DNA of 32,000 nt, from NCBI GenBank assembly GCA_902778665.1, contig CACYYN010000022.1:14614-46613 (forward strand). The letters are read 5' to 3'. The notes under the pieces were generated by a model that was given only the letters and a program-made list of their open reading frames with translations, did not search any database and had not been told where the DNA came from. How positions within the stretch are numbered: position 1 is the first letter of the stretch; each line of letters starts with the position of its first letter. Positions 5,737 to 31,086 of the stretch are shown in pieces. Source of the DNA: Oscillospiraceae bacterium. GTDB taxonomy: Bacteria > Bacillota > Clostridia > Oscillospirales > Oscillospiraceae. The position numbers were made by a program, and so were the translations under genes.

Positions 5737-6531
5737 TTATGACGTTTGCCAGATGTTTATTCTGTCTGCTCCGAATACGAGGCGGTTGCCGGCATGATCC
5801 AACAGCAAGCCGGTCTCCGGAGGAAGCTCATTTAACATCACAAGGCGGAGCTCGCCAACATCAGACATAACGAAATTCCCGCCATAAGATGCGGCAATCA
5901 TCCCAAGTACTTCCCTGGATGAATAGCCGATCGGGAGTGGGAATGTATACCCCTCGGTCATTATCGCCCTTGTTCTGGCATCTACTGATACTCCTATTGC
6001 ATTCGCAATATGCTCAACCATAGTAATATCAAGCAGCGGATAATCATGCTGCGAGTCTGACGGATAGTCCATTTCCGTCATCAGCATAGCGTCATATCCG
6101 TGGATAGACATGACTTCAAGCCCTTCGGCTGATGCAGTATGGTCTCTTGTATCGATGAAATAGACGCCCTTCTGGATCCATTCCGAGTGCCTCGTGCCGT
6201 CAGTTGCCCGGACATAAGGCTTGATCATTGCGCGGCGCGGAATTTCTCCCATCGGCCTGATCAGCTGCACATCGATCTCGCTGGCGATTGCATTGCCTAT
6301 CGTAGGAGTATCAGCAAACACCTGTTGATAAGTTTTGCACCCGACCAGCTGGGCCTCACGGTAACCTCCATCAGCTGCACTGGTCGCAACAAGGATCGCA
6401 GTCCCGCCAAAAAGGATCAATTCTTTTTTCTCTGTGATCAGCCTTCCGGATTCGCCTATTGTGACAGAGACCTCATACCAATAGCGAGGGCTTGATATAA
6501 TGTCCTTATAGAGTTGAGTTGTTTCCTGCAT
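5737..6531 (-). CDS. Tail or baseplate-associated protein, 264 aa
   Basis: It is the second gene after the tape measure. I recognised no specific motif. Confidence 0.55.
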   Translation of the reverse strand: MQETTQLYKDIISSPRYWYEVSVTIGESGRLITEKKELILFGGTAILVATSAADGGYREAQLVGCKTYQQVFADTPTIGNAIASEIDVQLIRPMGEIPRRAMIKPYVRATDGTRHSEWIQKGVYFIDTRDHTASAEGLEVMSIHGYDAMLMTEMDYPSDSQHDYPLLDITMVEHIANAIGVSVDARTRAIMTEGYTFPLPIGYSSREVLGMIAASYGGNFVMSDVGELRLVMLNELPPETGLLLDHAGNRLVFGADRINIWQTS

Positions 6532-6910: not shown

Positions 6911-9145
6911 TTATCCTCCAAGCGCTCTACTAAGTCTTTTCTGCCCAGCCTTGATCTCTCTGCTATCCAGGAATACCCTAACTTCCGTCACTCCGCTGCT
7001 CCCGCTCATTGCAGAAGTTACTGCTTCATATACACCGCGCTTAATGCCGGTTATGATCTGGTCATTGTTTGCTACAGCAGATCTGCCTCCAATTGTGCCA
7101 ACCATTTCAGGGCCTGCTTCCCTTGCGAGGAAGATCTGCCCGCTCTGTGGGAAACCGCCGGCGGCAAAGCCTTCCAAATATGTGCTGTATCCGTTCGCTT
7201 CATTCTTTGCGAGCCTCTGGCCGCCTTTCTCGCCAACAGCATTTAGCCAGGACAAAGCATCACGGCACGCAGCAATAATATTCTGCACAGCATTGATAAT
7301 TGGGCCTACAGCTGCCAAGACGTTGTTAACCATACTGCTAAAGGCACTTGTAACAGTCGCCCAAAGATTTGCAACCGTTTGCCCAAGATTGTCCCAGGCT
7401 GCCCGCAGGTCTTCCACTTTTGCCCCAACTGAAGTCTGAATTGTTTCCCAAACGCTGACCAATTTGTCCTTCAGTTTCCCGGCATACTCTTTGATGGTGT
7501 CCCAGTTCTTATACAGTGCAACACCGGCAGCAACCAGAGCGCCAATAACAGCGATGATCGGCAAAATTGCAGGGCTGACTGCTCCAAGCGCTCCCATAAC
7601 AACCGGCGCGAAGGTCATAAACTGGCCTATACCAGTCAACACGCTTCCGATTACAGTAACCAATGGCCCTATGGCAGCAACGACAAGGCCGATCTTTACG
7701 ATCATGTTCTGCTGGCTTTCGTCCAGGCTGTTGAACTTATCGAGCCACTCCTGCACTTTATCGATCACCGGCTGCATATACTTTGCAACCAGGCTGCCGA
7801 GTGATGTCATCAGAACATCAAGAGATGATTTCAGCCTTTCAATTGAACCGCCGAAGCCGGACATCATGGCTTCCGACATTTCGTCAGTCGTTCCGGCACA
7901 ATTCTTCAGAGACTTCTCAAGCTCATTCACTTCTTCAGGCGCCGTATTAATCAGAGCGAGGAATTTTGCCATCTGGTTTTTTCCAAAGATGGCAGAAGCT
8001 GCTGCAATCTGTTCACTCTCACTTAAGCCTGAAAAAGCAACGTGCAATTTCTCATAAATTTTATGAGCATCTTTCAGATCGTCATTGGTTATTTCAAGGC
8101 CAAGCGCTGCCATTGCTTCAGCGCCTTCTTTCGCAGGGCTTACAAGTCGAGCAATTCCTGTTTTCAATGCATTGGCAGCTTCATTGGCTTCAATGCCGGC
8201 ATTTGCCATAACGCCAATCATCAAAGCTGCGTCTTCAACTTCCATTCCTGCCGTCCGGAAAATAGGTGCTGCAATGCTCATGGAGCTTGATAGCGCATCA
8301 ACATCCAGTGCAGAGTTATTGCACGCTGCAGCGAATACATCAGCGTAATGTGCTGTGTTATCGAAGCTATCTCCGAAACCATTGATAGTTGCAACGAGGC
8401 CCGCAGAAACTGTATCCAGATTCCCGCCTTCACCTGCCGCCAGGTTCATTGCCGGAGCAAGAGCCGCAGCTGCCTCTTTCGCATCCAAACCGGCACGGGC
8501 AAAGTTCAATGTTGCATTTGCGGCATCAGCCATCCCAAACGTGGAATTAGCTGCTGCTTCGCTCATAGCAGCATCCAGAAGCTTTGCTTCTTCTTCGGTG
8601 TTCTTCATCGTGGCGTTGGTCAGTTGCATGATCTTATCGACTTCTGCAAACTTTCCTGCCGCAGCTGCTGCAGTTGCCACAATTGGCACCGTGATATGTG
8701 TTGTAAGGCTTTTCCCTGCTTCAACAGCTTTCTGCCCAAGCCCCTTAATCTTTTCGCCGACAGCTGCAATCTGCTGTGCTCCTACGGAACCAAAGTTTCT
8801 GGTTTCTTTTTCAAGTCCCTTCAGTTCCTGCTCTGTTGCGATGATCTCCCGCTGTAATGCCTGATATTCTTTGGAGTTTTTATCAACCCCGGAAGCATCC
8901 ATCTGAGCCTGTGCATCTTTCAGCTTTTGCAGTTTTTCCCTTGTCGCTGCAATTTCAGTGCCAAGAGCAGCCTGCTTCTGTCGAAGCAGTTCTGTGTTGG
9001 TCGGATCAAGTTTAAGAAGCTTGTCGACGTCTTTAAGCTGTGTTTGTGTACTTTTCAGCGTGGAGTTGACATCTTTCAAAGCTGACTGCAGCTTTGTGGT
9101 ATCTCCTCCGATTTCAATGGTTATACCTTTGATTCTGTCGGCCAT
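6911..9145 (-). CDS. Tail tape measure protein (TP901-family core), 744 aa
   Basis: It has an N-terminal coiled coil, the core ATINGFGD...MSIAAPIFRTAGMEVEDAALMIGVMANAGIEANEAANALKTGIARL, and central TM-like Gly/Ala stretches. AAAGAGGTGG precedes the ATG. Confidence 0.95.
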   Translation of the reverse strand: MADRIKGITIEIGGDTTKLQSALKDVNSTLKSTQTQLKDVDKLLKLDPTNTELLRQKQAALGTEIAATREKLQKLKDAQAQMDASGVDKNSKEYQALQREIIATEQELKGLEKETRNFGSVGAQQIAAVGEKIKGLGQKAVEAGKSLTTHITVPIVATAAAAAGKFAEVDKIMQLTNATMKNTEEEAKLLDAAMSEAAANSTFGMADAANATLNFARAGLDAKEAAAALAPAMNLAAGEGGNLDTVSAGLVATINGFGDSFDNTAHYADVFAAACNNSALDVDALSSSMSIAAPIFRTAGMEVEDAALMIGVMANAGIEANEAANALKTGIARLVSPAKEGAEAMAALGLEITNDDLKDAHKIYEKLHVAFSGLSESEQIAAASAIFGKNQMAKFLALINTAPEEVNELEKSLKNCAGTTDEMSEAMMSGFGGSIERLKSSLDVLMTSLGSLVAKYMQPVIDKVQEWLDKFNSLDESQQNMIVKIGLVVAAIGPLVTVIGSVLTGIGQFMTFAPVVMGALGAVSPAILPIIAVIGALVAAGVALYKNWDTIKEYAGKLKDKLVSVWETIQTSVGAKVEDLRAAWDNLGQTVANLWATVTSAFSSMVNNVLAAVGPIINAVQNIIAACRDALSWLNAVGEKGGQRLAKNEANGYSTYLEGFAAGGFPQSGQIFLAREAGPEMVGTIGGRSAVANNDQIITGIKRGVYEAVTSAMSGSSGVTEVRVFLDSREIKAGQKRLSRALGG

Positions 9146-11710: not shown

Positions 11711-12832
11711 TTATGCTCTGGCGAATCTTACAAACGCATTGGCATCAATCAGCTCGCCGTCTGCCATCGTTGCACCACGCCACTGAATATTGGTTGTGGT
11801 TGCAGTCTCAAAAGGCTTTACTTCAATAGCCTTGAAGATGTTGAGCTTATATGCTTTCGGATCACCGAAGAAAATGGTCTCTTTGCCGGAGACAAGGGCC
11901 TCAGACATTAGCACAACATCATGGCCGAACAGCTTCATGCCGAAACCATCATTGATGACATAATCGTTCAGGGCAGTCAGAGCCATGACCTCGCTGTAGA
12001 ACATATTCGGAGTCATGATCCAGATAGCGCCCTTATGATAGTTGGCACCAAGAGACGCCATGATTGCAAGGACATCCTTCTTTGCCAGAGTGGCCGGAAG
12101 AGCAGTTGCAGATGCAGTAACAGTTGCAGTAATGCCCTTGCATCCGGCAGTGCCGGCACCGACAAGCACATCAGCGTTCATCTTGGCCCGGATGGTTCCG
12201 ACAAGATTGTCAACAATCCAATCATGCAGGGCACCGATAGCCATATGATCAATATCAGCACCAACAGTGAGCAGTTTTACATACTCAAACGGAGTGAGAT
12301 CCGTGTAGTCAACAACATCGGAAGACTCCGTAATGGGACCACCGACAGCCTGGCCGGCTGCAGGATTAACAGTTGCAGCTTTGGGGAAGCGCACATAATT
12401 CGGGAACTGAGAAACATCAACACGGTTGAGAAGCTCAGCGGGCTTAATCAGTTTATCCCACACTGCATTAACAGTCATGGTCGGGATTACAGCACCGGCT
12501 GCAGTCAGAGCTGCACGCTCTTCCATGCTCATGTCGCGGTTGGAAATGCTCTTAACCCATGCATTTCTGTATTCGATGGAATCAATAGCAAAATTGTCTG
12601 CCATCTTTTTGGTCTCCTTTTCAAAAGTTCTGACGGTCTTGCCGTTCTCAATTACTTTAGCTTCAAGCGCTTTGCGCTCTTCAGCTGCCTTAATAATGTC
12701 AGCTTTACGCTGAGTAAGCTGATCGACTTCTGCATTCAGAGCGGTCAGATCAGCATCCGGAGTATCGAGCAGGCCGCGGATCTCTTCCAGCCTGGATTCG
12801 ACATCTTCCATTTTCATGTCTCTGATTTCCAT
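11711..12832 (-). CDS. Major capsid protein, HK97 family, 373 aa
   Basis: It has an N-terminal coiled delta domain followed by the HK97-fold body. It lies directly after the S78 protease. The RBS is GGAGGT. Confidence 0.95.
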   Translation of the reverse strand: MEIRDMKMEDVESRLEEIRGLLDTPDADLTALNAEVDQLTQRKADIIKAAEERKALEAKVIENGKTVRTFEKETKKMADNFAIDSIEYRNAWVKSISNRDMSMEERAALTAAGAVIPTMTVNAVWDKLIKPAELLNRVDVSQFPNYVRFPKAATVNPAAGQAVGGPITESSDVVDYTDLTPFEYVKLLTVGADIDHMAIGALHDWIVDNLVGTIRAKMNADVLVGAGTAGCKGITATVTASATALPATLAKKDVLAIMASLGANYHKGAIWIMTPNMFYSEVMALTALNDYVINDGFGMKLFGHDVVLMSEALVSGKETIFFGDPKAYKLNIFKAIEVKPFETATTTNIQWRGATMADGELIDANAFVRFARA

Positions 12833-12834
12833 AA

Positions 12835-13482
12835 TTAACCTCCTATGGAAAGTTTGATTTTGAGCATCAGCTGCTCTTTCTGCCTCTCGCGCTCAGACCG
12901 CTCCTGTCTGATTTCGGCAATCAATCCGTCGCTGAAATTACGCGCACTGATTTCTGTCCCGTCGTTCGCCGGAAGGCTCACAGCGGAAACATCGTACAGT
13001 TTTCCGATCTTGGTAATTGTTCTGGTGACCGTTGTGATGCCTGTGGAGTTGTCTTCTTTCACAAGCCGCTCATCTTCTGCCACCCGGAACCCGAAGGACA
13101 TTTTATTCGTATAGCCGCCACGGATCTCATCATAGAGCTGACGGCCAATCTCTGTCCCGCCAAGATTTGCCCGGATATGCAGCCCTCTGTCATCTGCGTC
13201 CAGCTGCAGAGTGCCGTTGCTGAGTCTTGCGAATACTCGCCCCTGGTGATCATACTGCATGATCACATCGGACATATCGCATTCATCAAAGGCTCTTTTA
13301 TCCACCTGCTCAAAAACACGATAATCACCGAATTCATAGAGCAGATAAGGATCATCAAATGTGGTGGCGTATCCTTCAACTATCTTTTCACTGTCATCCT
13401 CAGACTCCAGCGCCCGGAATTCCATTTGAACATTCCGGTATTCTCTGCCACCGTTAATCTTATCATCAATCATTGTTTTCAT
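12835..13482 (-). CDS. Prohead maturation protease, HK97/S78 family
   Basis: The sequence EGYATTFDDPY...IMQYDHQGRVFAR...MSFGFRV supports the call. The start is set at MKTMIDD, which has a GGAGGG RBS. Confidence 0.9.
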   Translation of the reverse strand: MKTMIDDKINGGREYRNVQMEFRALESEDDSEKIVEGYATTFDDPYLLYEFGDYRVFEQVDKRAFDECDMSDVIMQYDHQGRVFARLSNGTLQLDADDRGLHIRANLGGTEIGRQLYDEIRGGYTNKMSFGFRVAEDERLVKEDNSTGITTVTRTITKIGKLYDVSAVSLPANDGTEISARNFSDGLIAEIRQERSERERQKEQLMLKIKLSIGG

Positions 13483-14641
13483 CTGTCCCTCCGTCATCAT
13501 TGTTAACATCATTGGCGTTTTTATATTCGCCTCTGATTGTTCTCACATCTCCACCATCTACCGGTGCCAGATTGAAGATCTCTCTGGCCTCGTTGATGGA
13601 GAAGACACCTCTGTCCGTCATCTGGGACGCTATATTCAGCTTTTCTTTTGTGGACATATACTGCAGCCTGTTGGCCGTCAGCATGATCTGATTTCCATAG
13701 CCGCGCTCGTTTAGGCTGAAGACTGCTTTGGTCATCACATCGGAAAACTGAATTGCAAACGGCTCAATCGCACCCTCGTAAAAGCCTTGCCATGCATCGC
13801 CGTAGGCTTTGTTCTGCAGAACGTCTTCATTTACGCCGAAGTAATCATAAACATTTGTCCTGATTTCTTTCGCCTGTGCTTCGTCTACAGTGTATGGTGT
13901 GATTGTAAGCTGCTTAATATCTGTGTACTGATTCGGGAACAGAAGCAGCCCGCCGCCATCCTCGTCCTGGAAGTTCTGTCGGTTGAAGCGTTTCCGCTCT
14001 TTTGCGAGGTCTTCGGCATTGGTAAAGTTATTCAGCCTTGCCATCAGACGATAACTGTTGGAGTTCTTCGCCGCTTCTTTAATTGCCTGCCCTTGCAGTG
14101 CAATGAGATCCATCGTGTCGCTCAAAGCTTCATTTCCGGAGCCGAAGAAATCGTCATCATATTGGAAACGAGTCATAACCCCGCAGCGTGAAAGCTCGAC
14201 CGCTGCCTCCTGCCCATTGGAGAAGCGATAGCGTAGCCACGCAGTACCGCCATAGTCCTGAACAGATGTAGACGAGGGCAGCACCGGATAATAGCCGGTA
14301 ACATAACGGTATTCATCAAACACCGGCACAATGAAAGCTGTAGTCTGCATATCGAGGATTGTCGACAGCCGGTAAAGGAACTGCCCCCATGTCATCCATT
14401 CATTCGGTGCTTTTGTCAGCTTTGTTTTGAGCTCCGGCTTCGCTGAGCCTATCATTTCAAATTTCAGCTTGCTGATATGCCTTGCTCTGGCATCCACTGC
14501 CGCCCGGATCAGCGCCGCTTCATAAATACTGCCGGCATAATTTCGGAAAACAGGAGTGTAGGCATTCAGCGTCTGAAAATATCCGTTATCCTGTCCGCTG
14601 GGCTTCGGCTGCCGGCCGAATATTTTGTCAAAAAGTCCCAT
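13466..14641 (-). CDS. Portal protein, HK97 family, 391 aa
   Basis: Its size, its position after TerL and the family-typical sequence support the call. Confidence 0.9.
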   Translation of the reverse strand: MGLFDKIFGRQPKPSGQDNGYFQTLNAYTPVFRNYAGSIYEAALIRAAVDARARHISKLKFEMIGSAKPELKTKLTKAPNEWMTWGQFLYRLSTILDMQTTAFIVPVFDEYRYVTGYYPVLPSSTSVQDYGGTAWLRYRFSNGQEAAVELSRCGVMTRFQYDDDFFGSGNEALSDTMDLIALQGQAIKEAAKNSNSYRLMARLNNFTNAEDLAKERKRFNRQNFQDEDGGGLLLFPNQYTDIKQLTITPYTVDEAQAKEIRTNVYDYFGVNEDVLQNKAYGDAWQGFYEGAIEPFAIQFSDVMTKAVFSLNERGYGNQIMLTANRLQYMSTKEKLNIASQMTDRGVFSINEAREIFNLAPVDGGDVRTIRGEYKNANDVNNDDGGTDENND

Positions 14642-16300
14642 TTATTTGCCCTCGTTTCTCAATTGCCCGCCAATCTCTCCATACCACTTCTGTCGCACCG
14701 TCATGGCATCCAGAAGAGCCGCAGTGCCGTCGATGTGGTCTGACGGGTTTATCTTTACGAGCTTACCCCTGCCGCGTTCTACGTTCATTTTTACCGCAGA
14801 ATTCAGCAGATGAATCTTCAGGAGATCATTATCTCCGATATGTATTTTCCCGTCTTTCAGAAGGCCTTCTGTCTCCTGAATCACCGGCCAGAGGTTATCT
14901 CCCTGATAAACATCATCACAGTGAAAGCCGTATGTTTTCAGATCCTGGATAAGATATTGCGCGGAATACCGGTCATATCCAACCTGAAGTGGGTATATAT
15001 GATATTTCTCTACAAGCTGGACAAACCAGTTATAGCATTCTCTGTAATCAACAAAATTGTCGCCGGATGCTGTCAGAATACCACGCTGGATATAGATCTG
15101 ATACGGAAGTCCGTCTTTCTGTGATGCTTCCTCAATCTTCTCCGCCGGCAGGAAGAATTTTGCAAAGATATATAATTCTCCGCCTTTCTCAATCACCGCC
15201 GTGCAGGCTGTAAGGTCTGTTGTTTGTGACAGGTCGATCCCGCCCACGCAATAGCATTCCCGGAAATTTTCAAGCCGTAACTCTTCCCCACACGCCTGCT
15301 GCACTATCTGTGCCGGAAGCCATGCAAAAGCCGATGACTGTTTTATATTGCAATACTTTACTATGAATTCCGTCTTCTTGCTGTAGCTGCCTTCTGCTAT
15401 CGCTATTTCTTCCAGAAGATAGTCCACAGTAACAGAAACGCCAAGGTTCGGATTCGCTTTTCTAAGCTCGTTGATGTCGTTCCATTTTTCAACATCATCA
15501 ATCATATAGAGGAACGGCAACAACCGTTGTTCTTTGCTTTCTCCCATCAAAAAACGAGTTGATCTCTTGATCAGCTCGTCATATATTCCGTCATTCAAAT
15601 ACCCTGATGTTGATATAGACAGCAAAAGCGGCTGTCGCCTCGCACCCATGGACGACTTGAGGACCTCGTAAAACTTCAGCCCAGCATCGCCTTGCCAGCT
15701 TGCACATTCATCTGCAATCGCGCAGGATATATTCAGTCCATCGGATTTCTTTGCGTTGAAGGCCAGCGGCTTTGCGGTGCTGTTATTCTCCTGCACATAG
15801 ATATCCGTCCTCCGTTTTCTGATCATCTTTGCAAGTTCCGGCTCCTGCATGATCATCTGATAATAGGCATCAAAGCACAGGTTGGCTTGATCCAGCTTCG
15901 GAGCTGCGAAATAGATCTTCCCGCCGTATTCGCCGTCGAGGAAAGTCATATATTCCGCAATGGCCGCTGCAAAAAGTGTTTTCCCGTTTTTTCTGGCAAT
16001 CACCAGAAACACCTCCCGGAATTGCCTTGCTCCCGTCTCGTCCAGTACACCGAAGATGATGGAAGCAATCGCTTTCTGCCAGAGCTCCAACCGGATCAGT
16101 TGCGGAGCAAGTTCCCCTTCATGATGATGGCAAAAGTTTTCCATGAAGCGGATTGCTGCCATTGCTTTTTTGTGGTTGTAAAAAAATCGCTTTTCCTGCA
16201 AGCCTCGGATGATCAGGTCATACAGCAGTGTTATCCATTTCCCGACGTTTTCGGTCCCGTCCCTGATTTTCTGATAATAGGCGAAAATATAATTATTCAT
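14642..16300 (-). CDS. terL: Terminase large subunit, 552 aa
   Basis: It has a Walker-A-like ARKNGKTLFAAAIA and a C-terminal nuclease region. It overlaps the TerS stop. Confidence 0.95.
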   Translation of the reverse strand: MNNYIFAYYQKIRDGTENVGKWITLLYDLIIRGLQEKRFFYNHKKAMAAIRFMENFCHHHEGELAPQLIRLELWQKAIASIIFGVLDETGARQFREVFLVIARKNGKTLFAAAIAEYMTFLDGEYGGKIYFAAPKLDQANLCFDAYYQMIMQEPELAKMIRKRRTDIYVQENNSTAKPLAFNAKKSDGLNISCAIADECASWQGDAGLKFYEVLKSSMGARRQPLLLSISTSGYLNDGIYDELIKRSTRFLMGESKEQRLLPFLYMIDDVEKWNDINELRKANPNLGVSVTVDYLLEEIAIAEGSYSKKTEFIVKYCNIKQSSAFAWLPAQIVQQACGEELRLENFRECYCVGGIDLSQTTDLTACTAVIEKGGELYIFAKFFLPAEKIEEASQKDGLPYQIYIQRGILTASGDNFVDYRECYNWFVQLVEKYHIYPLQVGYDRYSAQYLIQDLKTYGFHCDDVYQGDNLWPVIQETEGLLKDGKIHIGDNDLLKIHLLNSAVKMNVERGRGKLVKINPSDHIDGTAALLDAMTVRQKWYGEIGGQLRNEGK

Positions 16301-19411: not shown

Positions 19412-19557
19412 TTGTCTGCAGGTAGAAATACACTGCATACTCGCTTTTGCGAGGGGCTATTAAAGCCTTTATTGCTAAACAGGCTCTTGGTAGTAAGCGC
19501 TCCACCATAAGGAGATTGCTGAATCCTCGGGCCTTATTTGTTAGAAAGGGGTTTTCA

Positions 19558-20229
19558 ATGATACGCACAGCAATTCTTGTTGATGGTGGGTTCTATAGGA
19601 AACGGGCTAAAAACTTATGGGGCGAATTAACTGCTGAAGCAAGAGCAAAAGAACTTGTTGCATATTGTCAAGCCCATATTCACAGTAGTTCAAAAGATGA
19701 ATCAATCCGTCTATACCGCGTGTTCTATTATGACTGTGAGCCTATAGGACGCCGGAGTGTTTACCATCCTCTTCGCCAGGAAAACGTTGACCTCGATAAA
19801 TCTGAAACGTACACCTGGTCAACTGCGTTTCTGGAAGAACTGAAAAAAAAGAGAAAATTCGCTCTTCGGCTTGGGCATTTATCAGACCAAATGAACTATA
19901 ATTTAAAGCCTGAAGTAACTAAAGCTCTTCTATCTGGGAAAAGAAGTATCGAAAGTCTCACAGATAAGGATTTCGTATTTAATATTCAGCAAAAAGGCGT
20001 GGATATGAAAATAGGTGTTGACATTGCCTCTCTTGCCTATAAAAAGCAGGTTGATCAGATTATTTTAATAGCCGGAGACAGTGATTTTGTCCCTGCTGCA
20101 AAACTTGCCCGCCGTGAAGGAATCGACTTTATCTTAGATCCAATGGGTGTTATGATAAGAGATGATTTATTTGAACACATTGATGGTCTGAAATCCCATT
20201 GGCGAAATCAGTCTAAGGTTTCTGAATAA
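19558..20229 (+). CDS. NYN-domain (LabA/PIN-like) predicted ribonuclease, 223 aa
   Basis: The start is set at MIRTAILVDGGFY, preceded by GAAAGGGG. KGVDMKIGVDIASLAYKKQVDQIILIAGDSDFVPAAKLARREGIDF is the classic C-terminal NYN motif with its acidic residues. Confidence 0.8.
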   Translation: MIRTAILVDGGFYRKRAKNLWGELTAEARAKELVAYCQAHIHSSSKDESIRLYRVFYYDCEPIGRRSVYHPLRQENVDLDKSETYTWSTAFLEELKKKRKFALRLGHLSDQMNYNLKPEVTKALLSGKRSIESLTDKDFVFNIQQKGVDMKIGVDIASLAYKKQVDQIILIAGDSDFVPAAKLARREGIDFILDPMGVMIRDDLFEHIDGLKSHWRNQSKVSE

Positions 20230-21068: not shown

Positions 21069-22034
21069 TTACGTCTCCACCTTTTTGCGGAAAGCATCAA
21101 CTACTGCCATGATGGCCTTGGAGAGCTTTCCTGCTGTCTCCTGATCAGTATTCCGAATTCTAAGCAGGAGCCCGTGGAGGCGGTTCTGGTCCTCCTGCAG
21201 CTGCGTGAAATAGACCTCGAAGGTTGTTATATCCGGTGAAGCTTTCGCAAGCTGCTTCCGGAGGTCCTCGGCTTTCTGCTCGGCAGCGGCTCTGCCCGCT
21301 TCCGCTGCGGCAATTTCCGCCTGTGCCTCGGCATGGGCTTCTTCCCGGATCTCTCTTCTTTTCTCCTCCGATATCACGGGATTCGCTTTCGCATCCGCCA
21401 GGGCTGCACGGGCATCCTGCAGCTTCTTCTCGGCATCTTCTCTTGCCGATTCGGCCTTTTTCGCTTTGTCAACGGCCTTTGCCGCCTCTGTCTGCAGATT
21501 TGTGACCTGCTGGGCCTTCATGTTGAGGTCCCGGTTTGAATCTCTCAACATTTTATTGTCTTCTTCAAGCTTCTTCTGTGCTGAGACGGCAGCATCCCGC
21601 TCCTCGATCGCTTTTTTCAGTTCCCGGACGGACATGCTCTCCACATCGTGCTCTTTCACGAATTCTTCCCGCTCATTTTCCGGCACGGAAAGAAGGGCAA
21701 AAGCCTGAGAAATCCCCAAATTCCGAAACGTTTCGGAATTTAGATCACCGAAAAGGCTCTCCTGATTTGCCCCGTAGGCGTCATAAATCTTCATCATCAT
21801 GGTGGCTTTGTCCTGAGAGAATGGCAGATTCTCCTTGATCCAGTTTCCCCATTCCCCGTGGTCCACCAGTTGCTTTGCCTCGGTGAGCTTTCTCCCCAGC
21901 TGGATGGCATAGGAAAGCTCAGACCGGAGAGCTGTCTGGTAAAGCGTGTTGATCTCTGTCTTGATAATATTGATGTCCCGGAATTCGCCTTCCCGGACGG
22001 CTGTGGTTCTGCTGATGGTCAGTTCGTCGCTCAT
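21069..22034 (-). CDS. DUF3102-family protein with a C-terminal coiled coil, 321 aa
   Basis: The sequence IQLGRKLTEAKQLVDHGEWGNWIKENLPFSQDKATMMMKIYDAYG...SQAFALLSVPENEREEF supports the call. Confidence 0.75.
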   Translation of the reverse strand: MSDELTISRTTAVREGEFRDINIIKTEINTLYQTALRSELSYAIQLGRKLTEAKQLVDHGEWGNWIKENLPFSQDKATMMMKIYDAYGANQESLFGDLNSETFRNLGISQAFALLSVPENEREEFVKEHDVESMSVRELKKAIEERDAAVSAQKKLEEDNKMLRDSNRDLNMKAQQVTNLQTEAAKAVDKAKKAESAREDAEKKLQDARAALADAKANPVISEEKRREIREEAHAEAQAEIAAAEAGRAAAEQKAEDLRKQLAKASPDITTFEVYFTQLQEDQNRLHGLLLRIRNTDQETAGKLSKAIMAVVDAFRKKVET

Positions 22035-23794
22035 GCGGTTGTCCTCCTGTTATTTTTCAGCAGGTAGGGAGCCAGCACATCCGTCTCCCACGCCTGCACA
22101 AAGTCTGTTACTTCTTTCGGGATGCTCAGCCTCTTCCCGTGTGCGTACTCATTGCCGTATCCGTGCAGCTGGATCCGGTGCACTTTGCTGCCGTTCACAT
22201 CCTCGTTGAGTGTGAACCAGCTTCGCTCCGGCCTTCTGGCATGACGGACGAAGAAGATCATCTGCCCCCGGCAGTGCTGTGAGGCATAACCTCCCACGCA
22301 GTGATGCAGCACTGCACCTTCTCTGACCAGTTCCGCAGGACTTTCCGGAATGACAATGCAGTATTCCCCGTTTTTCCATTCCAGTGGAGCATACTTCTTC
22401 TTCATTTCCGCAAAGGTTCGGCACTCTTTCGATGTGCCGATCTTCTTTTGCTCTATTCTGATGGCCGTCAGCGCATCCGATACACGGTCATGAGCGTTCC
22501 GCAGGTCTCTCGGGAATTTCTCCTCCTGCGTCAGCTCTGTTTCCCGCTCCGTCATCTCGCAAAGGCTTCTGAGCATTCTTCTGTAGTCCAGATAATGGAC
22601 CGCATCGGTTTTCTGCTTCTCAATATAGCTGCAGATTCTCCCGAGGCCGTCTGAAAAGAATGGGGTGAAGCGGTCTATTCCGGTAGGATCAATCTGCTTC
22701 CCCCAGGCTGTGAATTCCGCCGCCGTCGTCTTCGGGAAGATCTTCCGATAGTCTTTGAATGCGCCAACCAGCTGAAGCGTCCAGGCATGAGATACGATGA
22801 AACGATAGTCTACCTTCCCGACGCCGAGGATCCGGTGCGGTTTTTTCTCTCTCAGGTCCATGCCAGCCATGTCCGTGCTGTAGCTGTATCTCATACGTGC
22901 CCGCACATAGTCTGACGCAATGGCAGCGCCCCCGGTTTTCACCAGCGCCTCGATGCTCCGGTTCTTTGACCAGATCTTCAGATAAGAGGAAGCGCACAGG
23001 GCATCCTTTGCTTTGAAATAGGTGTCGATCGCTGTTTTCTCTCCCGTGGTGCCGGTCATGTCCTCCACATTGCAGAACATATATGCGCCTGTTGATTTCA
23101 TGTAGAAACCGCCGCCCTCGCAGTACGGCATGGTTTCCGGATCATTCCACCGGCCGATTTTTCTCCATTTCCCATCTGTCCCGGTTCCGTACCGGATGAC
23201 TCTGCCGGAAGGGCTGACAGCCGTCGCACACCTTGCTGCTGCCGTCACAGAGCTATAGCCTGTCTTTTCCAGCCATCTGGTGGCCAGCCAGTAAAGGATG
23301 ACGGTGGTGGTTCCGATTTTCGTCAACTCGGCGATCTGGACCGTGAGGCTTCTTCCATTTATTCTGCTGCGCCTGATAAGCTCTCCCTCCGTGCCGCACA
23401 TCGGGCAGGTCATGGTTTCCCTTTTATTTCCGCTGACATCGAAGGACACGGTTTCAGGTTCTTCGCCGTCCGTCCATCCGTCCAGGAGAAGGCCGTCTTC
23501 CATCTGCAGCATCAGAATCTGTTTGTTCTTATATCCTGCTGTGAAGGTCTCCCCACAGGCAGTGCATCTGCAGGCTGCACCCCAGTGGTTTTTCTCTTCC
23601 ATCGCATAGCTGCCGAAGCTGTTCAGTATGCCCCAGTTGGCCGGGTCCGGCACGCTCTCCCGGGCCCAGATGATCAGGTGAGGTTTGATCTCCTCCAGCT
23701 TCTCCGCATATCTCCGGAGCTTATCATCCGGCTCATACGGGAGTGCTTCAAGCGTTGCCTGCTCCCACTCCCGCTCATCAATTCGTTTTCCCAT
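22031..23794 (-). CDS. PcfJ-like protein, 587 aa
   Basis: The C-terminal sequence LVREGAVLHHCVGGYASQHCRGQMIFFVRHARRPERSWFTLNE...RIQLHGYGNE supports the call. It also has an N-terminal CxxC...CPMC zinc-ribbon-like pairs. Confidence 0.75.
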   Translation of the reverse strand: MGKRIDEREWEQATLEALPYEPDDKLRRYAEKLEEIKPHLIIWARESVPDPANWGILNSFGSYAMEEKNHWGAACRCTACGETFTAGYKNKQILMLQMEDGLLLDGWTDGEEPETVSFDVSGNKRETMTCPMCGTEGELIRRSRINGRSLTVQIAELTKIGTTTVILYWLATRWLEKTGYSSVTAAARCATAVSPSGRVIRYGTGTDGKWRKIGRWNDPETMPYCEGGGFYMKSTGAYMFCNVEDMTGTTGEKTAIDTYFKAKDALCASSYLKIWSKNRSIEALVKTGGAAIASDYVRARMRYSYSTDMAGMDLREKKPHRILGVGKVDYRFIVSHAWTLQLVGAFKDYRKIFPKTTAAEFTAWGKQIDPTGIDRFTPFFSDGLGRICSYIEKQKTDAVHYLDYRRMLRSLCEMTERETELTQEEKFPRDLRNAHDRVSDALTAIRIEQKKIGTSKECRTFAEMKKKYAPLEWKNGEYCIVIPESPAELVREGAVLHHCVGGYASQHCRGQMIFFVRHARRPERSWFTLNEDVNGSKVHRIQLHGYGNEYAHGKRLSIPKEVTDFVQAWETDVLAPYLLKNNRRTTA

Positions 23795-26499: not shown

Positions 26500-26586
26500 C
26501 TATCCGAGAAACTTCCCGACCGTGTTTAGAATTGCTATAAGAAGAGCGATCGCGCTTAAAATTAATGCAGTTCTGGAAATATCCAT
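26500..26586 (-). CDS. Hydrophobic micro-protein, 28 aa (not in the ORF track)
   Basis: My translation is MDISRTALILSAIALLIAILNTVGKFLG. It is preceded by the duplicated GGAAGGAGGAA initiation region. Confidence 0.45.
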   Translation of the reverse strand: MDISRTALILSAIALLIAILNTVGKFLG

Positions 26587-26590
26587 TTTC

Positions 26591-26620
26591 TTCCTCCTTC
26601 CCGCTCCGGATGCGAAAATG
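26591..26620 (-). repeat. Copy A of a 30-bp duplicated translation-initiation region (minus strand: CATTTTCGCATCCGGAGCGGGAAGGAGGAA)
   Basis: It is identical to 26866-26895. Confidence 0.85.
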
Positions 26621-26860
26621 TCAGTCATCTATAAAGACATTTGGGTCAATTCCAATAGTCTTATACTCCCGAAATGAGTTACCATCGATCCCATTCTCTG
26701 TAGCTTTCACCGGCCCGTATTCCAGATGTAACTCAATCTTCATATAGGCTAATTCGTCGGCCAACGATTTAGCCTCTTTTATCAATTCCCGCAGTCTTCT
26801 CGCTTTTTCGATCGCTTCGTCTATACCGGTTACTTTGACCTGCACTTCAGCAGATGCCAC
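26621..26860 (-). CDS. Hypothetical early protein, 79 aa (GTG start)
   Basis: It is preceded by copy B of the duplicated SD region. Confidence 0.6.
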   Translation of the reverse strand: MASAEVQVKVTGIDEAIEKARRLRELIKEAKSLADELAYMKIELHLEYGPVKATENGIDGNSFREYKTIGIDPNVFIDD

Positions 26861-26865
26861 TTGTT

Positions 26866-26895
26866 TTCCTCCTTCCCGCTCCGGATGCGAAAATG
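26866..26895 (-). repeat. Copy B of the 30-bp duplicated translation-initiation region
   Basis: It is identical to 26591-26620. Confidence 0.85.
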
Positions 26896-26942
26896 CACCC
26901 GGCTTTTTTGGTTTCTCTGCGAAAAATGTGTTGTTTCCTTTT

Positions 26943-26970
26943 GCATCATTGCTTATTCAGATTGACAGCG
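26943..26970. repeat. Left arm of a 28-bp inverted repeat (the first 18 bp are perfect) bracketing a plus-strand unit
   Basis: The arm is gcatcattgcttattcagattgacagcg. The reverse complement of 27389-27416 is gcatcattgcttattcaggttggcagcg (26/28). Confidence 0.85.
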
Positions 26971-26991
26971 TTTGTTTTGCTCTGATAGAAT
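26962..26991 (+). promoter_or_regulatory. Strong sigmaA-type promoter, TTGACA-18-TAGAAT, with a TGa extended -10
   Basis: Read directly from the sequence. The -35 lies inside the left inverted-repeat arm. Confidence 0.65.
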
Positions 26992-26997
26992 GTTTTC

Positions 26998-27388
26998 AGC
27001 AGATCACGCTGAGCCAAGCCCCACCAGGGAAGGTGTAACGACTGGACACGGAGCATCCCTCCGGGATGAAGGCACAGTCTGGCCTTGCGGGTGACCGCAA
27101 GAGGCGGGCAGAAATGACCCGCTCCCACATTCGTGGAGTAACAAACCGGATGACAGGAGTCGCTGAAAACATGACAGAAGCTTGTGAGTCTATCAAAGCA
27201 TCCGCTATTACCAGAATGCCCAAGATTACTGTTTCTCCCGCATTGACTGAAGCTCTTGGACGTCTTTCCGAAACTTCCAAACTTTATGATACCGAGGTGA
27301 ATTATCGCCCTGCCGGGCAGCAATGCCCGGTCTGTACTCCGTAAATTCGGCGAAAATCTGCTCCCGCCTCTCAGGCGGGTTTTCTTTT
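26998..27388 (+). other. Autonomous ~390-nt plus-strand transcription unit whose coding status is unresolved. It may encode a 76-92 aa ORF (27066/27114..27344) or be a structured RNA.
   Basis: It is bounded by the promoter and terminator listed separately. The ORF lacks a well-spaced SD at 27066, and there is a weak AAGAGG 9 nt before the ATG at 27114. Two perfect 7-bp hairpins have GNRA loops: 27084-27101 (GTGA) and 27313-27330 (GCAA). The 5' coordinate is approximate. Confidence 0.5.
27363..27388 (+). terminator. Rho-independent terminator
   Basis: The hairpin is cccgcc-tctca-ggcggg, followed by ttttctttt. Confidence 0.8.
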
Positions 27389-27416
27389 CGCTGCCAACCT
27401 GAATAAGCAATGATGC
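27389..27416. repeat. Right arm of the 28-bp inverted repeat
   Basis: See the left arm at 26943-26970. Confidence 0.85.
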
Positions 27417-27438
27417 TCTCCCGCTCCGGCGGGATCTT

Positions 27439-27630
27439 TTATTCCTCCCCGGCCTCTGTCGGACGGAACAGCTTCTCAACCAACTCCCTGCTCAGGACCA
27501 GCTCCAGGGCAGCCTGGAAGCCGTGCAGCTCACTGGCGATCATGCAGTTGCCCATCTCATCGCCTGCCTCTCTGGCATCCTCTGCGAGCTGCCTGTAATG
27601 CAGGATCTGAGCCCGAATCATCTTCTCCAC
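27439..27630 (-). CDS. Hypothetical early protein, ~63 aa (GTG start; alternative ATG at 27621)
   Basis: GGAGG lies 8 nt upstream of the GTG, within the duplicated 25-bp SD region. Confidence 0.5.
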   Translation of the reverse strand: MEKMIRAQILHYRQLAEDAREAGDEMGNCMIASELHGFQAALELVLSRELVEKLFRPTEAGEE

Positions 27631-27631
27631 C

Positions 27632-27656
27632 TTCTTCACCTCCTCACCTTCTTCAC
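27632..27656 (-). repeat. Copy 1 of a 25-bp duplicated SD region (minus strand: GTGAAGAAGGTGAGGAGGTGAAGAA)
   Basis: It is identical to 28002-28026. Confidence 0.85.
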
Positions 27657-27674
27657 CTGTGGCACCGCTGCCGT

Positions 27675-28001
27675 TCAAGCATCCATGATCTCGGCTTTTA
27701 CCAACTCGCACAGGGCATCAGCCAGCTGCTCTTTGTCAAAGCCTTCCGTCCCTTTCCCGCTTATCAGATTGCACAGCTCCGCAAACGTCGGAGTAATCGC
27801 CTTCAGGATAAAGTAGAATGCCAGGACAGGCCCTCCGCCCATGTTGTCCGTTACTTCCGGCACTGGATTCCCCTTCCGAAAAGTTATCAGCATCTGGCAG
27901 TCGTTGTTGTCCAGGAACTCATCAACGATCGCCCCGAAGGAATCAATATTGAGCTCATTCCTGTTAGCTTTTTCCCGCATGTGTCTTCCCAATGGTGTCA
28001 T
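27675..28001 (-). CDS. Hypothetical early protein, 108 aa
   Basis: The ATG follows directly after copy 2 of the duplicated SD region. Confidence 0.65.
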   Translation of the reverse strand: MTPLGRHMREKANRNELNIDSFGAIVDEFLDNNDCQMLITFRKGNPVPEVTDNMGGGPVLAFYFILKAITPTFAELCNLISGKGTEGFDKEQLADALCELVKAEIMDA

Positions 28002-28026
28002 TTCTTCACCTCCTCACCTTCTTCAC
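28002..28026 (-). repeat. Copy 2 of the 25-bp duplicated SD region
   Basis: It is identical to 27632-27656. Confidence 0.85.
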
Positions 28027-28052
28027 ATGGCAGATACTACCATGATCGATTT

Positions 28053-28289: not shown

Positions 28290-28437
28290 TCCATCACCTC
28301 CTTTTACCGCTAACGGTAAATTTGATATTATATTATTACCGTCAGTGGTATTTGTCAACAATTATTTTCCGCTGACGGTAATTTTTTTCTTTACTTTTTA
28401 CCCGTGCTCTATTATACTCGCCTTGGAGGTGAAAAAA
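28290..28437. promoter_or_regulatory. Lysis-lysogeny switch with divergent promoters and three related operator half-palindromes
   Basis: The operators are O1 ttaccgctaacggtaa (28304-28319), O2 ttaccgtcagtggta (28337-28351) and O3 ttccgctgacggtaa (28367-28381). The minus-strand promoter is TTGACA (28353-28358)-17-TAATAT (28330-28335), with O2 in the spacer. The plus-strand candidate is TTTACT (28390-28395)-17-TATACT (28413-28418). Confidence 0.7.
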
Positions 28438-28815
28438 ATGTATGACTTTGCTCCGATTCTCGCAAGAATAAAGCAAGTAAAGAAAGCTGCAAATATGACA
28501 AATGAAGAGCTTTCAAAAGCTTCTGGCATTCCATTTGGTACTATCAACAAGATCTTATCCGGTGATACTCAAGAGCCTAAGCTTCCCGCTCTGATGGCAA
28601 TTGCTTCAGCATTAGGTACTTCTGTAGATTATCTTGTATACGGAGCTTCTAATTCAGCCTCCGTCATTCAAAAAATCAAGCCTGAAGAAGAGCGGCTCTT
28701 TGCCGATTATCGAGATGCCTCCGAGGAGATCCGTGGAGCAGCTGCCAGCATGCTGCATGATTCCGCCGAGCGCAACCGGAAAGATGGGCTCATGAACGGG
28801 CCCAGCGCTGGATAA
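28438..28815 (+). CDS. CI-like XRE-family repressor, 125 aa, with no S24 autopeptidase domain
   Basis: GGAGGTG lies upstream of the ATG. The HTH is MTNEELSKASGIPFGTINKILSGDTQEPKLPALMAIASALGTSVDYLV. Confidence 0.9.
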   Translation: MYDFAPILARIKQVKKAANMTNEELSKASGIPFGTINKILSGDTQEPKLPALMAIASALGTSVDYLVYGASNSASVIQKIKPEEERLFADYRDASEEIRGAAASMLHDSAERNRKDGLMNGPSAG

Positions 28816-28949: not shown

Positions 28950-29558
28950 TCATTTAAGATATTTAATCATCTGTATCAAATAGTCTCCTGATATATCAGT
29001 TTCTTCTCGGTCGAGTTCTCTTTTATCGAACTCGCAAAATCCATTGTCTTTATAAAAGTCAACCAGTTTCGGTTTATCTTCACACTCCAGATAAACATAC
29101 CGCCCACCGAGATCAAGCTGAATATTTTTTACCTTTTCACATGCAATCGCAAGAAGTTCATCACCTGTTATCAGTTCATTATACCCGTTCGTGTAATTCT
29201 TTCCCAGTTGAGCTATCAACGGAGCTGTTAATACATATTTTCTGATTTGCGGATAATAAATTGCAAACTTTGCTATCCGCTTTTTATTCGTGCTACTCAA
29301 TCCTTTTGTGGATACAGATATATTTTTATTTGCCAATGTAAAATAGCCTACCAGCACCATTTCCTTTTTATGCGAAGCCATCACCAGATGCGTCTGTGAA
29401 AGGCTCTGCTTTGAAAATTCAATAGCCTTATATCTAAGAAAACTTTCGACGTCCAGATTCAGAGGGCACGAAAAATCAGAGAGGAAATTCTTTGCGAATT
29501 CCTCTCCCATCTCATCCACCAGAATCTTCAGATTAACAACCTTATATCCGTGCATCAT
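28950..29558 (-). CDS. GNAT-fold N-acetyltransferase-like protein, 202 aa
   Basis: The sequence LVGYFTLANKNISV...PLIAQLGKNYTNGYNELITGDELLAIACEKV...GGRYVYLECEDKPKLVDFYKDNGFCEF has the GNAT core beta4-alpha3 and FYxxxGF layout. Confidence 0.7.
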   Translation of the reverse strand: MMHGYKVVNLKILVDEMGEEFAKNFLSDFSCPLNLDVESFLRYKAIEFSKQSLSQTHLVMASHKKEMVLVGYFTLANKNISVSTKGLSSTNKKRIAKFAIYYPQIRKYVLTAPLIAQLGKNYTNGYNELITGDELLAIACEKVKNIQLDLGGRYVYLECEDKPKLVDFYKDNGFCEFDKRELDREETDISGDYLIQMIKYLK

Positions 29559-29907: not shown

Positions 29908-31086
29908 ATGGGCAGGAGGGCAAAATACAAGGCCCGGCCGGACGGGCTGCGGGAGACCACAAAAAGCTATAAGGATTTCGGGCCTTCCCGGTATACCGGC
30001 CGGAAGCACTTCTACGGGCACAGCGATGACGAGGTCGATGCGAAGATCGAGGCCTTTGAGAAGGCGATGAAGTCCGCCCCGGAGAAGAAGGCCCGCTCCT
30101 TCGGAAAGGTCGCCGGTGACTGGTGGCAGGAGAAGGAGCCGACGCTCTCCCCGAATTCCGTCTGCGGATACCGGACGGCCCTGCACCGGGCTGACGAGGA
30201 ATTCGGCAGCATCCCCATCGACGAGATCACCCCGCAGCAGTGCATTGCCTACCTGAAGCGGTTTGCCGCCCAGGGCTACAGCATGAAGGTGATCACGAAC
30301 ACCAAGATCGTGCTGAAAGGGATTCTTGACCATGCGTTCGCCGACGGTGATATCAACAGCAACCCCTGTGCCAATCTGCCGCCGATCAAGGGAGCCGGGA
30401 AAAAGAAACGGCACGCAGCTGAGGATGAGGACATCCAGATTATTGAGCAGACGAAGACGCAGAGCCTATTCGCAAGGATGAGCTACTTCATGCTGTACAC
30501 CGGATGCCGGCGGGGCGAGGCAGCTGCCCTGCAGCAGAAGAACATCGACCGGGAAAAGAAAAAGGCCCGCATCGTGCAGGCGATCGCATACAGCGACACA
30601 AGAAAGCCCCAGCTCAAGCTGCCGAAGAGTGAGGCAGGGTTCCGGGAGATCGATCTCTATGACAATGTGCTGGAGATCCTGCCGGAGTATGAGGATCCGG
30701 AGACCTATGTCTTCTTCCCGGACGGTCTGCCGACGAAGACCTATCTGGAAGCCGGCCTGAAGAAATATCAGGAAGACAACGGCATCCGGGCAACCGCCCA
30801 CCAGCTCCGTCACAGCTATGCCAGCATGCTGCACTCCGCCGGCATCGACGTGAAGGATGCGCAGCATCTTCTCGGGCACAGCACCATCGCCATGACGCAG
30901 GATGTATACACCGAGATCGAGAAGGCGCACGGCAGCGAGATCCGGGAGACGGTGAACGCCTTCATCCAGGACAGGAAGCTGAACAAAGAGAAAAAGACCT
31001 GCCCCGAATGCGGGAGCAGGTATGTGAAAGCACCTGACGGGCATGTGTTTACCTACTGCCCGGACTGCGGTGCAAAACTGGTTTAA
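29908..31086 (+). CDS. int: Tyrosine integrase with a C-terminal zinc ribbon, 392 aa
   Basis: AGGAGGTG lies upstream of the ATG. The catalytic set is TGCRRGE, HQLRHSYAS, LLGHS and QDVYTE. The tail is CPECGSRYVKAPDGHVFTYCPDCG. Confidence 0.95.
   Translation: MGRRAKYKARPDGLRETTKSYKDFGPSRYTGRKHFYGHSDDEVDAKIEAFEKAMKSAPEKKARSFGKVAGDWWQEKEPTLSPNSVCGYRTALHRADEEFGSIPIDEITPQQCIAYLKRFAAQGYSMKVITNTKIVLKGILDHAFADGDINSNPCANLPPIKGAGKKKRHAAEDEDIQIIEQTKTQSLFARMSYFMLYTGCRRGEAAALQQKNIDREKKKARIVQAIAYSDTRKPQLKLPKSEAGFREIDLYDNVLEILPEYEDPETYVFFPDGLPTKTYLEAGLKKYQEDNGIRATAHQLRHSYASMLHSAGIDVKDAQHLLGHSTIAMTQDVYTEIEKAHGSEIRETVNAFIQDRKLNKEKKTCPECGSRYVKAPDGHVFTYCPDCGAKLV

Follow-up and report, generated by a model that had tools for sequence, protein, structure and literature searches.

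What does a 474-base-pair (bp) segment bounded by inverted repeats do in the midst of the early genes of a prophage? The question is raised by a 32,000-nucleotide (nt) stretch of the genome of an Oscillospiraceae bacterium (GenBank assembly GCA_902778665.1, contig CACYYN010000022.1, positions 14,614 to 46,613 of the forward strand), to which we refer in its full length as the window. A sequence-only reading had taken positions 26943-27416 of this window either for a cassette resembling a miniature inverted-repeat transposable element (MITE), or an invertible one, encoding a small protein, or for a structured non-coding RNA expressed from the prophage, and had proposed to decide between protein and RNA by comparing coding with structural conservation. 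That comparison came out in favour of both, a structured RNA with a coding open reading frame (ORF) inside. As judged from its relatives, the cassette is a prophage gene for a predicted RNA of ~365 nt, which we call the clamp RNA, and whose conserved ends would pair around a small, fast-evolving ORF.

Conserved modules that pair across the unit

Relatives of the unit were drawn from a protein search with a 92-amino-acid (aa) ORF lying within it, from the contigs encoding the proteins found, and from nucleotide scans blind to any ORF. The protein search gave 13 clusters; since a set obtained in this way is biased to intact ORFs, conserved nucleotide strings were scanned for as well, which yielded eight loci in genomes (Colidextribacter, Dysosmobacter, Lachnospiraceae, Oscillospiraceae and Eubacteriales metagenome-assembled genomes), nine in metagenomes and, with a looser core pattern, 40 IMG/VR contigs. 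Altogether 50 distinct units were recovered from gut and rumen phages, prophages and Clostridia genomes, and two cultured isolates carry the unit, Colidextribacter sp. OB.20 and Dysosmobacter sp. HCP28S3_G4. All copies except one share a three-part architecture. The 5′ domain (~150 nt) is almost invariant and the 3′ module (~70 nt) is conserved, and the middle that separates them varies, its length being 107-281 nt where measured and that of whole units 356-530 nt.

In the window the structured, non-coding 5′ domain occupies 26999-27146 and the 3′ RNA module, which overlaps the end of an ORF, 27294-27361, both on the plus strand, as are all elements of the fold. The two modules are joined by three long-range helices, P1 (26999-27003 with 27357-27361), P2 (27007-27012 with 27347-27352) and P4 (27048-27053 with 27337-27342). 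The 5′ domain further contains P3 and P3a (27013-27034), P5 (27054-27058 with 27064-27068), a small hairpin (27070-27080), P6 (27084-27101, CTTGCGG-GTGA-CCGCAAG), H4 (27105-27121), H5 (27125-27136) and the element GGAGUAACAA (27135-27144), and the 3′ module contains P9 (27313-27330, CCGGGCA-GCAA-TGCCCGG) and a conserved UAA (27342-27344). The two GNRA-capped 7-bp stems noticed beforehand in the sequence are P6 and P9, with the loops GTGA at 27091-27094 and GCAA at 27320-27323. Three conserved strings resemble a Shine-Dalgarno (SD) sequence, GGAAGGUG at 27030-27037, GGAG at 27135-27138 and, within the 3′ module, GAGGUGA at 27294-27300; the last is read as in-frame Glu-Val in 34 of 42 units.

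Covariation among relatives supports the fold. In alignment A2, which held 23 distinct sequences with their 5′ and 3′ modules joined by an N spacer, RNAalifold found 55 pairs in 11 helices, with compensatory changes in 20 of the pairs; 99.1% of the cells were paired, as against 30-38% when partners were slid by 1-3 columns, and none of 500 shuffles reached any of five measures. With 44 distinct sequences there were 58 pairs (98.3% canonical), 33 of them with compensatory pair types. Both GNRA hairpins and nine other helices are thereby kept through compensatory changes in relatives. P1 occurs as GCAGA/UCUGC, AUAGA/UCUAU, AGAGA/UCUCU or UUAGG/CCUAA, P2 exchanges C-G for U-A, and P4 exchanges A-U for G-C as well as G-C for A-U, each of the three long-range helices covarying. 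The stems of P6 and P9 vary freely and their loops stay GNRA (GUGA, GCGA, GUAA, GCAA) in the sequences inspected, the single exception reported being P6 of one relative (L048, GCAA). Because G-U pairs are invariant and frequent, the structure is assigned to the plus-strand transcript; folding of the window's RNA beats all 100 shuffles (z = -3.0), and that of the opposite strand is weaker (z = -2.0). The covariation analysis that had been proposed for the locus, done here with RNAalifold, thus bears out the suggestion of a structured RNA expressed from a prophage, as 11 helices covary and the limits of conservation fit the promoter and the terminator.

Indeed, the segment is by all its signals an autonomous plus-strand transcription unit, with a predicted RNA of ~365 nt (26999-27361 plus terminator). 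A sigma-70-type promoter on the plus strand at 26962-26991 (TTGACA at 26962-26967, an 18-nt spacer and TG-n-TAGAAT at 26983-26991) matches 11 of 12 consensus positions in addition to its TG extension, was the top site of a 4-kb scan and places the predicted transcription start near 26998-26999. An intrinsic terminator follows on the same strand at 27363-27388 (stem 27363-27379, then a T-run), and a second terminator-like hairpin lies at 27419-27443 (hairpin 27419-27434, plus strand), just past the right inverted arm. The near-consensus promoter, whose -35 box overlaps the left arm, and the first of these terminators had both been recognised in the sequence-only reading and stand as described. 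In 24 of the 27 units surveyed, 5-9 nt separate the -10 box from the base at which conservation sets in, and 20 of those 24 have the TG extension; at the other end conservation extends to the final base of the closing helix and no further, and in nearly all units a strong terminator hairpin comes directly after P1. Across relatives the promoters and terminators keep their positions, and their sequences differ or are unrelated. The window's operator palindrome (28335-28382) is likewise unrelated to the unit's promoter. As no operator is held in common with the cI/cro region, the promoter is probably not under CI control, and the RNA would therefore be made in the lysogen. We also considered the inverted arms as operators common to the unit and the cI/cro region and rejected the idea, the sole palindrome of that region being unrelated to them.

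The RNA family is without a match among the known families and texts searched. The Rfam search that had been suggested matched no family: Rfam 15 gave nothing at gathering score in the window, the same-strand matches overlapping the unit at E-values up to 10 over 26700-27700 were terminator-like chance matches only, and 15 other unit-bearing loci returned only a neighbouring transfer RNA (tRNA) and one sub-threshold chance match (NsiR1). ARAGORN found no tRNA or transfer-messenger RNA (tmRNA) in the window, and BLASTN against 50,697 deposited phages and 72,556 PLSDB plasmids gave at most a 49-nt chance match to mycobacteriophage tail genes. A full-text literature search for the sequence and peptide strings of the unit found no paper and keyword searches found nothing specific, and there is no occurrence in the first 200 of the 408 supplementary files of a human-microbiome structured-RNA survey.

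Three loci are of interest for their layout. One phage contig (L081, IMGVR_UViG_2837229570_000003) has two copies of the 5′ domain 1.6 kb apart, at 12-31 and 1640-1659, one of which is truncated by the end of the sequence retrieved. L003, from the same contig as L005, has at 5888-6108 a short version of ~220 nt, in which the 3′ module is complete and P1 and P2 have kept their 5′ strands, but the core of the 5′ domain is missing. In L029 a tRNA gene (953-1025) lies ~200 nt from the unit and may be a former attachment site.

The reading frames within the unit

Three frames on both strands had been seen to be open across the interior, and this is so: one on the plus strand at 27066-27344 (92 aa) and two on the minus strand at 26946-27479 (177 aa) and 26996-27280 (94 aa). 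Neither these nor the 57-aa ORF described below matched Pfam or PHROGs. As a gene, the 92-aa ORF is refuted by the comparative data, in which the signature of a coding sequence is confined to its last 57 codons. The ATG at 27066 falls within GGAUG, the 3′ strand of P5, and the codon at this place is ATG in 32, TTG in 11 and another one (CTG, CCG, GTG or GCG) in five of 48 units; in 16 of these 48 the frame runs open over 80 codons or more, and in 32 it is broken within the 5′ domain. The first ORF-blind scans gave 15 distinct units, of which 12 have an interrupted frame, as has the close relative L013.

The earlier suggestion of a small protein survives in a shorter form, the 92-aa ORF being an artefact and the codon signature belonging to an embedded plus-strand ORF of 57 aa at 27171-27344, or of 64 aa from an alternative in-frame start at 27150. 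In a nucleotide-level alignment of ten distinct members that was blind to codons, the stretch between the ATG at 27171 and GAGGTGA measures a multiple of three in all ten, as do all 31 internal gaps, and differences per site amount to 0.44, 0.26 and 0.58 at codon positions 1, 2 and 3, with which a codon-aware alignment agrees. By this signature the 57-aa ORF is coding, and its translation is predicted. Its candidate SD sequences are weak or distant (GGAG at 27135-27138, partly inside helix H5, and AGGAG at 27154-27158), standing 11-12 nt from the start codons. A complementarity involving the surroundings of the start codon, of 11 nt between 26990-27000 and 27162-27172, was considered and rejected, being confined to the window's clade and lying mostly upstream of the predicted transcription start.

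Across the family, 43 of 48 units have an ORF of at least 45 aa whose start is no more than 75 nt from where the 5′ domain ends. The ends of 41 such ORFs fall at the conserved UAA (20), earlier inside the 3′ module (7), beyond the module (12) or before it (2). Different members read the 3′ module in at least two frames, and stop codons stand in the loop or stem of P9 in L012, L020 and L021, where the stem covaries and the downstream sequence is conserved. This pattern argues that the 3′ module is conserved as RNA. What lies between the modules varies in kind as well. Most units hold a hydrophilic, hypervariable ORF of 48-77 aa, the window's peptide being hydrophilic and without a membrane segment; in a longer subfamily (506-540 nt) the ORF is a short one of 10-24 codons, followed in the members examined closely by a conserved hairpin and a single-pass membrane ORF; and in L040 a 225-aa protein with an LPXTG-like anchor follows the 5′ domain.

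A proposed gate acting in cis and the alternatives

We propose a model in which the conserved fold of the clamp RNA gates in cis the translation or stability of the ORF that it encloses, and we give this reading about an even chance (roughly 0.5). A strong promoter without an operator shared with cI/cro would drive a plus-strand RNA of ~365 nt, the 5′ domain of which would fold as a multi-helix junction bearing the GNRA-capped P6, and the 3′ module of which would bear the GNRA-capped P9. Pairing of both modules through P1, P2 and P4 would then close the RNA like a clamp. Inside the clamp would lie a small and fast-evolving ORF (57-64 aa here), apparently swapped in some relatives for other cargo, namely single-pass membrane proteins and one surface-anchored protein. 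A ribosome finishing this ORF would have to melt P9 and P4 and to cover P2. Since the ORF almost always shares sequence with the strands of P9, P4 and often P2, the fold should be unable to stay closed while a ribosome translates, and we infer from this geometry that closure and translation would be mutually exclusive. The fold would in this manner serve as a cis gate that sets the translation or stability of an accessory ORF of the moron type, expressed in the lysogen, and the gate's state may depend on a ligand or factor that binds to the 5′ domain; the direction of the regulation and the nature of its signal are matters that we can only infer.

Codon-level selection on the peptide, the exchange of cargo and the arrangement of L040 favour such a role in cis. 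Several observations weigh against it. Expression and translation of the unit are both predictions, the SD sequences of the embedded ORF are weak next to the strong GGAGG boxes of the neighbouring genes, and no conserved alternative pairing was found that would make an expression platform of the riboswitch kind. In five units a short ORF of 10-24 codons replaces the usual one, and L040 has the 5′ domain without the 3′ module. Furthermore, three units of the long subfamily are found among chromosomal metabolic genes and not in recognisable prophages, L031 and L036 (Dysosmobacter) between aminotransferase and sodium:alanine symporter genes and L035 after TRAP-transporter and aldolase genes. Finally, conservation is far stronger in the RNA modules, which bear hallmarks of tertiary structure, than in the protein, as would be expected if the RNA itself is the functional product.

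This last possibility is the main rival, which we regard as a serious contender at clearly less than even odds. The folded RNA would here work in trans, as the scaffold of a ribonucleoprotein, a decoy, a ribozyme-like RNA or a sensor, with the ORF as a passenger or as a means of control; translation in progress, for instance, might keep the clamp open, so that the RNA closes and becomes active only when translation stalls. That the modules are near-invariant across host families when the peptide is hypervariable, that they persist with three unrelated types of cargo, that each copy forms a discrete unit with a promoter and terminator of its own, and that the ORF need only enter the 3′ module, in any of at least two frames, would all be accounted for, and the retention of two GNRA loops (with the one exception in P6) together with invariant junction bases suggests a compact tertiary fold. 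Against it, the codon-position periodicity and the strictly in-frame gaps show selection on the peptide within clades. No known ribozyme or ribonucleoprotein family matches, no partner protein or target is consistently encoded nearby, and no constant partner gene was found across the loci compared.

Known systems resemble the clamp RNA in part, and the unit does not appear to be a member of the dual-function small RNAs, the fold-back type I toxin mRNAs, tmRNA or the riboswitch leaders. Dual-function regulatory RNAs include SgrS/SgrT, RNAIII/delta-haemolysin, SR1/SR1P and VR-RNA/hyp7 of Clostridium perfringens. Like these, the clamp RNA would be a discrete transcript of a few hundred nt, with its own promoter and terminator, that combines RNA structure with a small ORF; unlike them, its conserved RNA flanks the ORF and pairs across it, the ORF overlaps the pairing module and encodes a hypervariable peptide, no target for base pairing is known, and there is no similarity in sequence or by covariance model. 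With tmRNA it shares 5′ and 3′ ends that close the molecule and an internal ORF whose end is encoded by conserved RNA, but it is without a tRNA-like domain (ARAGORN and Rfam were negative) and its ORF has an ordinary ATG. As in riboswitches and other structured leaders, a conserved aptamer-like domain, with a multi-helix junction, invariant junction bases and covarying helices, lies upstream of an ORF, and the SD sequence GGAG is partly held in H5; here, however, the aptamer-like domain needs a partner module after the ORF, the downstream genes give no metabolic clue, and no conserved alternative helix came to light. ROOL and GOLLD are likewise strongly structured RNAs of prophages in gut and rumen Firmicutes, whereas the clamp RNA is much smaller (~220 conserved nt), contains a coding ORF and matches no Rfam model. 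Phage morons, too, consist of a promoter, a small gene and a terminator, and the unit resembles them in its orientation, which in the window and L002 is the reverse of that of the phage genes around it, and in having no fixed place among phages (it lies in the lysogeny module or, in L002, in the capsid module); in the clamp RNA it is the RNA scaffold that is conserved, not the protein.

A module like the type I toxin-antitoxin systems, in which a toxin mRNA would be silenced by 5′-3′ pairing as in hok or aapA1, is improbable. The mRNAs of hok/Sok and aapA1/IsoA1 do show long-range 5′-3′ pairing around a small ORF and residence on mobile elements, and the unit similarly pairs its 5′ and 3′ ends around a small ORF with a poorly placed SD sequence, is found on prophages, a relaxase-bearing element and chromosomes, and encodes single-pass membrane peptides in one subfamily. 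The window's peptide, as is true of most, has nevertheless no membrane segment and is hydrophilic, there is no antisense (minus-strand) promoter-like site inside the window's unit, and neither an antisense RNA nor an antitoxin RNA was seen; a transcript of the early operon would be antisense to the unit, yet it is not a dedicated antitoxin. Type I loci moreover usually show far lower conservation of RNA sequence than the clamp RNA.

The inverted arms, which had led to the proposal of a MITE-like or invertible cassette, are real, although an element of either kind defined by them is very improbable. The 28-bp arms previously described at 26943-26970 and 27389-27416 are complementary at 26 of 28 positions, with 418 nt between them. 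Their 18-mer core occurs at just two places in the window even with up to three mismatches, where shuffles predict 0.08 matches and none of 100 shuffles reaches two; the left arm carries the -35 box, and one A/T change is mirrored in both arms in the L006 clade. The arms are nevertheless limited to the window's clade (the window, L006/L007/L026, L012, L013, L015 and L017, with complementarity of 24-26 in 27-29), with a partial left arm in L022. Most relatives that keep the unit are without them, which was the check proposed for mobility; these have unrelated flanks, and L030 and L032 have P1 lengthened to 19-23 bp instead. No direct repeat flanks the arms, so that the reported lack of a target-site duplication holds, and a search for further copies, also proposed earlier, gave none in the window beyond the two and one chance match in IMG/VR, within a tail-fibre gene. 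The integrase near arm-bearing loci is of the tyrosine type in some and the serine type in others, and there is no dedicated invertase.

As in an inverton, the arms flank a promoter, yet this promoter faces into the cassette and meets the terminator before the far arm; because it points inward, inversion could not turn on a flanking gene. The unit has the same orientation, opposite to the adjacent early genes, in every arm-bearing locus with readable flanking genes (past the right arm of L015 the gene direction is reversed), and neither both orientations nor a cognate invertase was found among the arm-bearing assemblies, the nearby recombinases being prophage integrases only. A search for an empty site with the 108-aa early protein as query gave one distant phage without the unit, too diverged to define insertion boundaries. 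To judge from this distribution, the arms are a lineage-specific addition and not the defining part of the unit. Since transcription is predicted to start downstream of the left arm, the arms could pair only in an antisense transcript of the early operon, and one may speculate that they would there form a 28-bp duplex around the antisense insert, a candidate site for RNase III; alternatively, insertion of the unit may once have split a palindrome, leaving the arms as its halves. Least probable of all is that the unit is simply the gene of a 92-aa protein (27066-27344), given that the frame is open in the window and called by gene callers in the 13 protein clusters but has its ATG inside a strand of P5, with another codon there in 16 of 48 units, stays open in only as many, has no match in Pfam or PHROGs, and is outrun by nucleotide conservation both upstream of the ATG and downstream of the stop.

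Prophage setting and wider meaning

The window is a temperate siphovirus prophage. Profile scans of the Pfam/PHROG type place a tyrosine integrase at 29908-31083 and an XRE/CI-type repressor at 28438-28815 on the plus strand and, on the minus strand, PcfJ (22034-23794), DUF3102 (21072-22034), the large terminase (14645-16300), the portal (13469-14641), the prohead protease (12838-13512), the major capsid protein (11714-12832) and a minor tail or tape-measure-type protein (6914-9145). The early operon runs on the minus strand, divergent from the repressor gene, and three genes into it lies the cassette on the plus strand, breaking, as had been observed, an array of minus-strand early genes on both flanks. 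The remark that no reverse transcriptase lies nearby holds as well: no reverse transcriptase domain, as in a retron or diversity-generating retroelement, occurs in the window ORFs scanned against Pfam or in the called genes of related loci.

In relatives the context is mostly a lysogeny module as well, with CI-type repressors, helix-turn-helix regulators, ImmA-type peptidases, tyrosine or serine integrases and Ant anti-repressors. In L047, L055 and L056 an Ant anti-repressor gene diverges from the unit, which lies upstream of, and codirectional with, a CI repressor and an integrase, the repressor of L047 and L055 matching CI-like-repressor and UmuD-like PHROG families. In L002 it stands in the head-gene region, just upstream of ORFs that are scaffold- or capsid-like by eye, without a family match, and in L025 it stands beside a relaxase.

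Several further features of the window's regulatory region were observed. A 55-nt element, on the minus strand CATTTTCGCATCCGGAGCGGGAAGGAGGAA, is repeated at 26566-26620 and 26841-26895, directly upstream of two consecutive minus-strand early genes, and includes the ribosome-binding site; a third, short copy lies at 27419-27429, and its TCCCGCTCCGG core also makes the second terminator hairpin past the right arm. A 28-nt direct repeat, 96% identical, is found at 27632-27659 and 28002-28029, with one copy directly upstream of the 108-aa early gene and the other inside a listed 90-aa ORF; the 90-aa gene therefore probably starts later, near an ATG at ~27613, in agreement with shorter gene calls in L013 (63 aa) and L006 (69 aa). 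The 14-bp inverted repeat between cI and cro (28335-28348 and 28369-28382, 13 of 14 matching) is probably the operator of the genetic switch. Against the direction of their neighbours run a plus-strand ORF for an NYN-domain protein at 19447-20226 and, between cI and int, a low-GC minus-strand ORF of 202 aa at 28953-29558 that has no Pfam match. An NYN-domain gene adjoins the repressor gene in L016, too; an RNase of this kind was considered as partner of the unit and rejected, as it is absent from the other loci.

What emerges is a well-supported, unmatched RNA family, with ~220 conserved nt, at least 50 distinct sequences and 33 covarying pairs. Its setting is the region controlling lysis and lysogeny in temperate phages of Oscillospiraceae and Lachnospiraceae, bacteria that are abundant in gut and rumen and in which phage regulation is almost unstudied. 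For gene annotation it means a correction, as a non-coding leader is currently called as part of a false 92-aa protein, with 13 clusters in the protein database. More tentatively, and at clearly less than even odds, the clamp RNAs could form a new class in which ribosomes passing through the ORF set the RNA to an open or a closed state, which the prophage would read as a sensor of host translation or of a ligand, coupled to the maintenance of lysogeny, to defence against superinfection or to induction. Conserved modules that pair across a hypervariable ORF could be a general way of tying the folding of an RNA to its translation.

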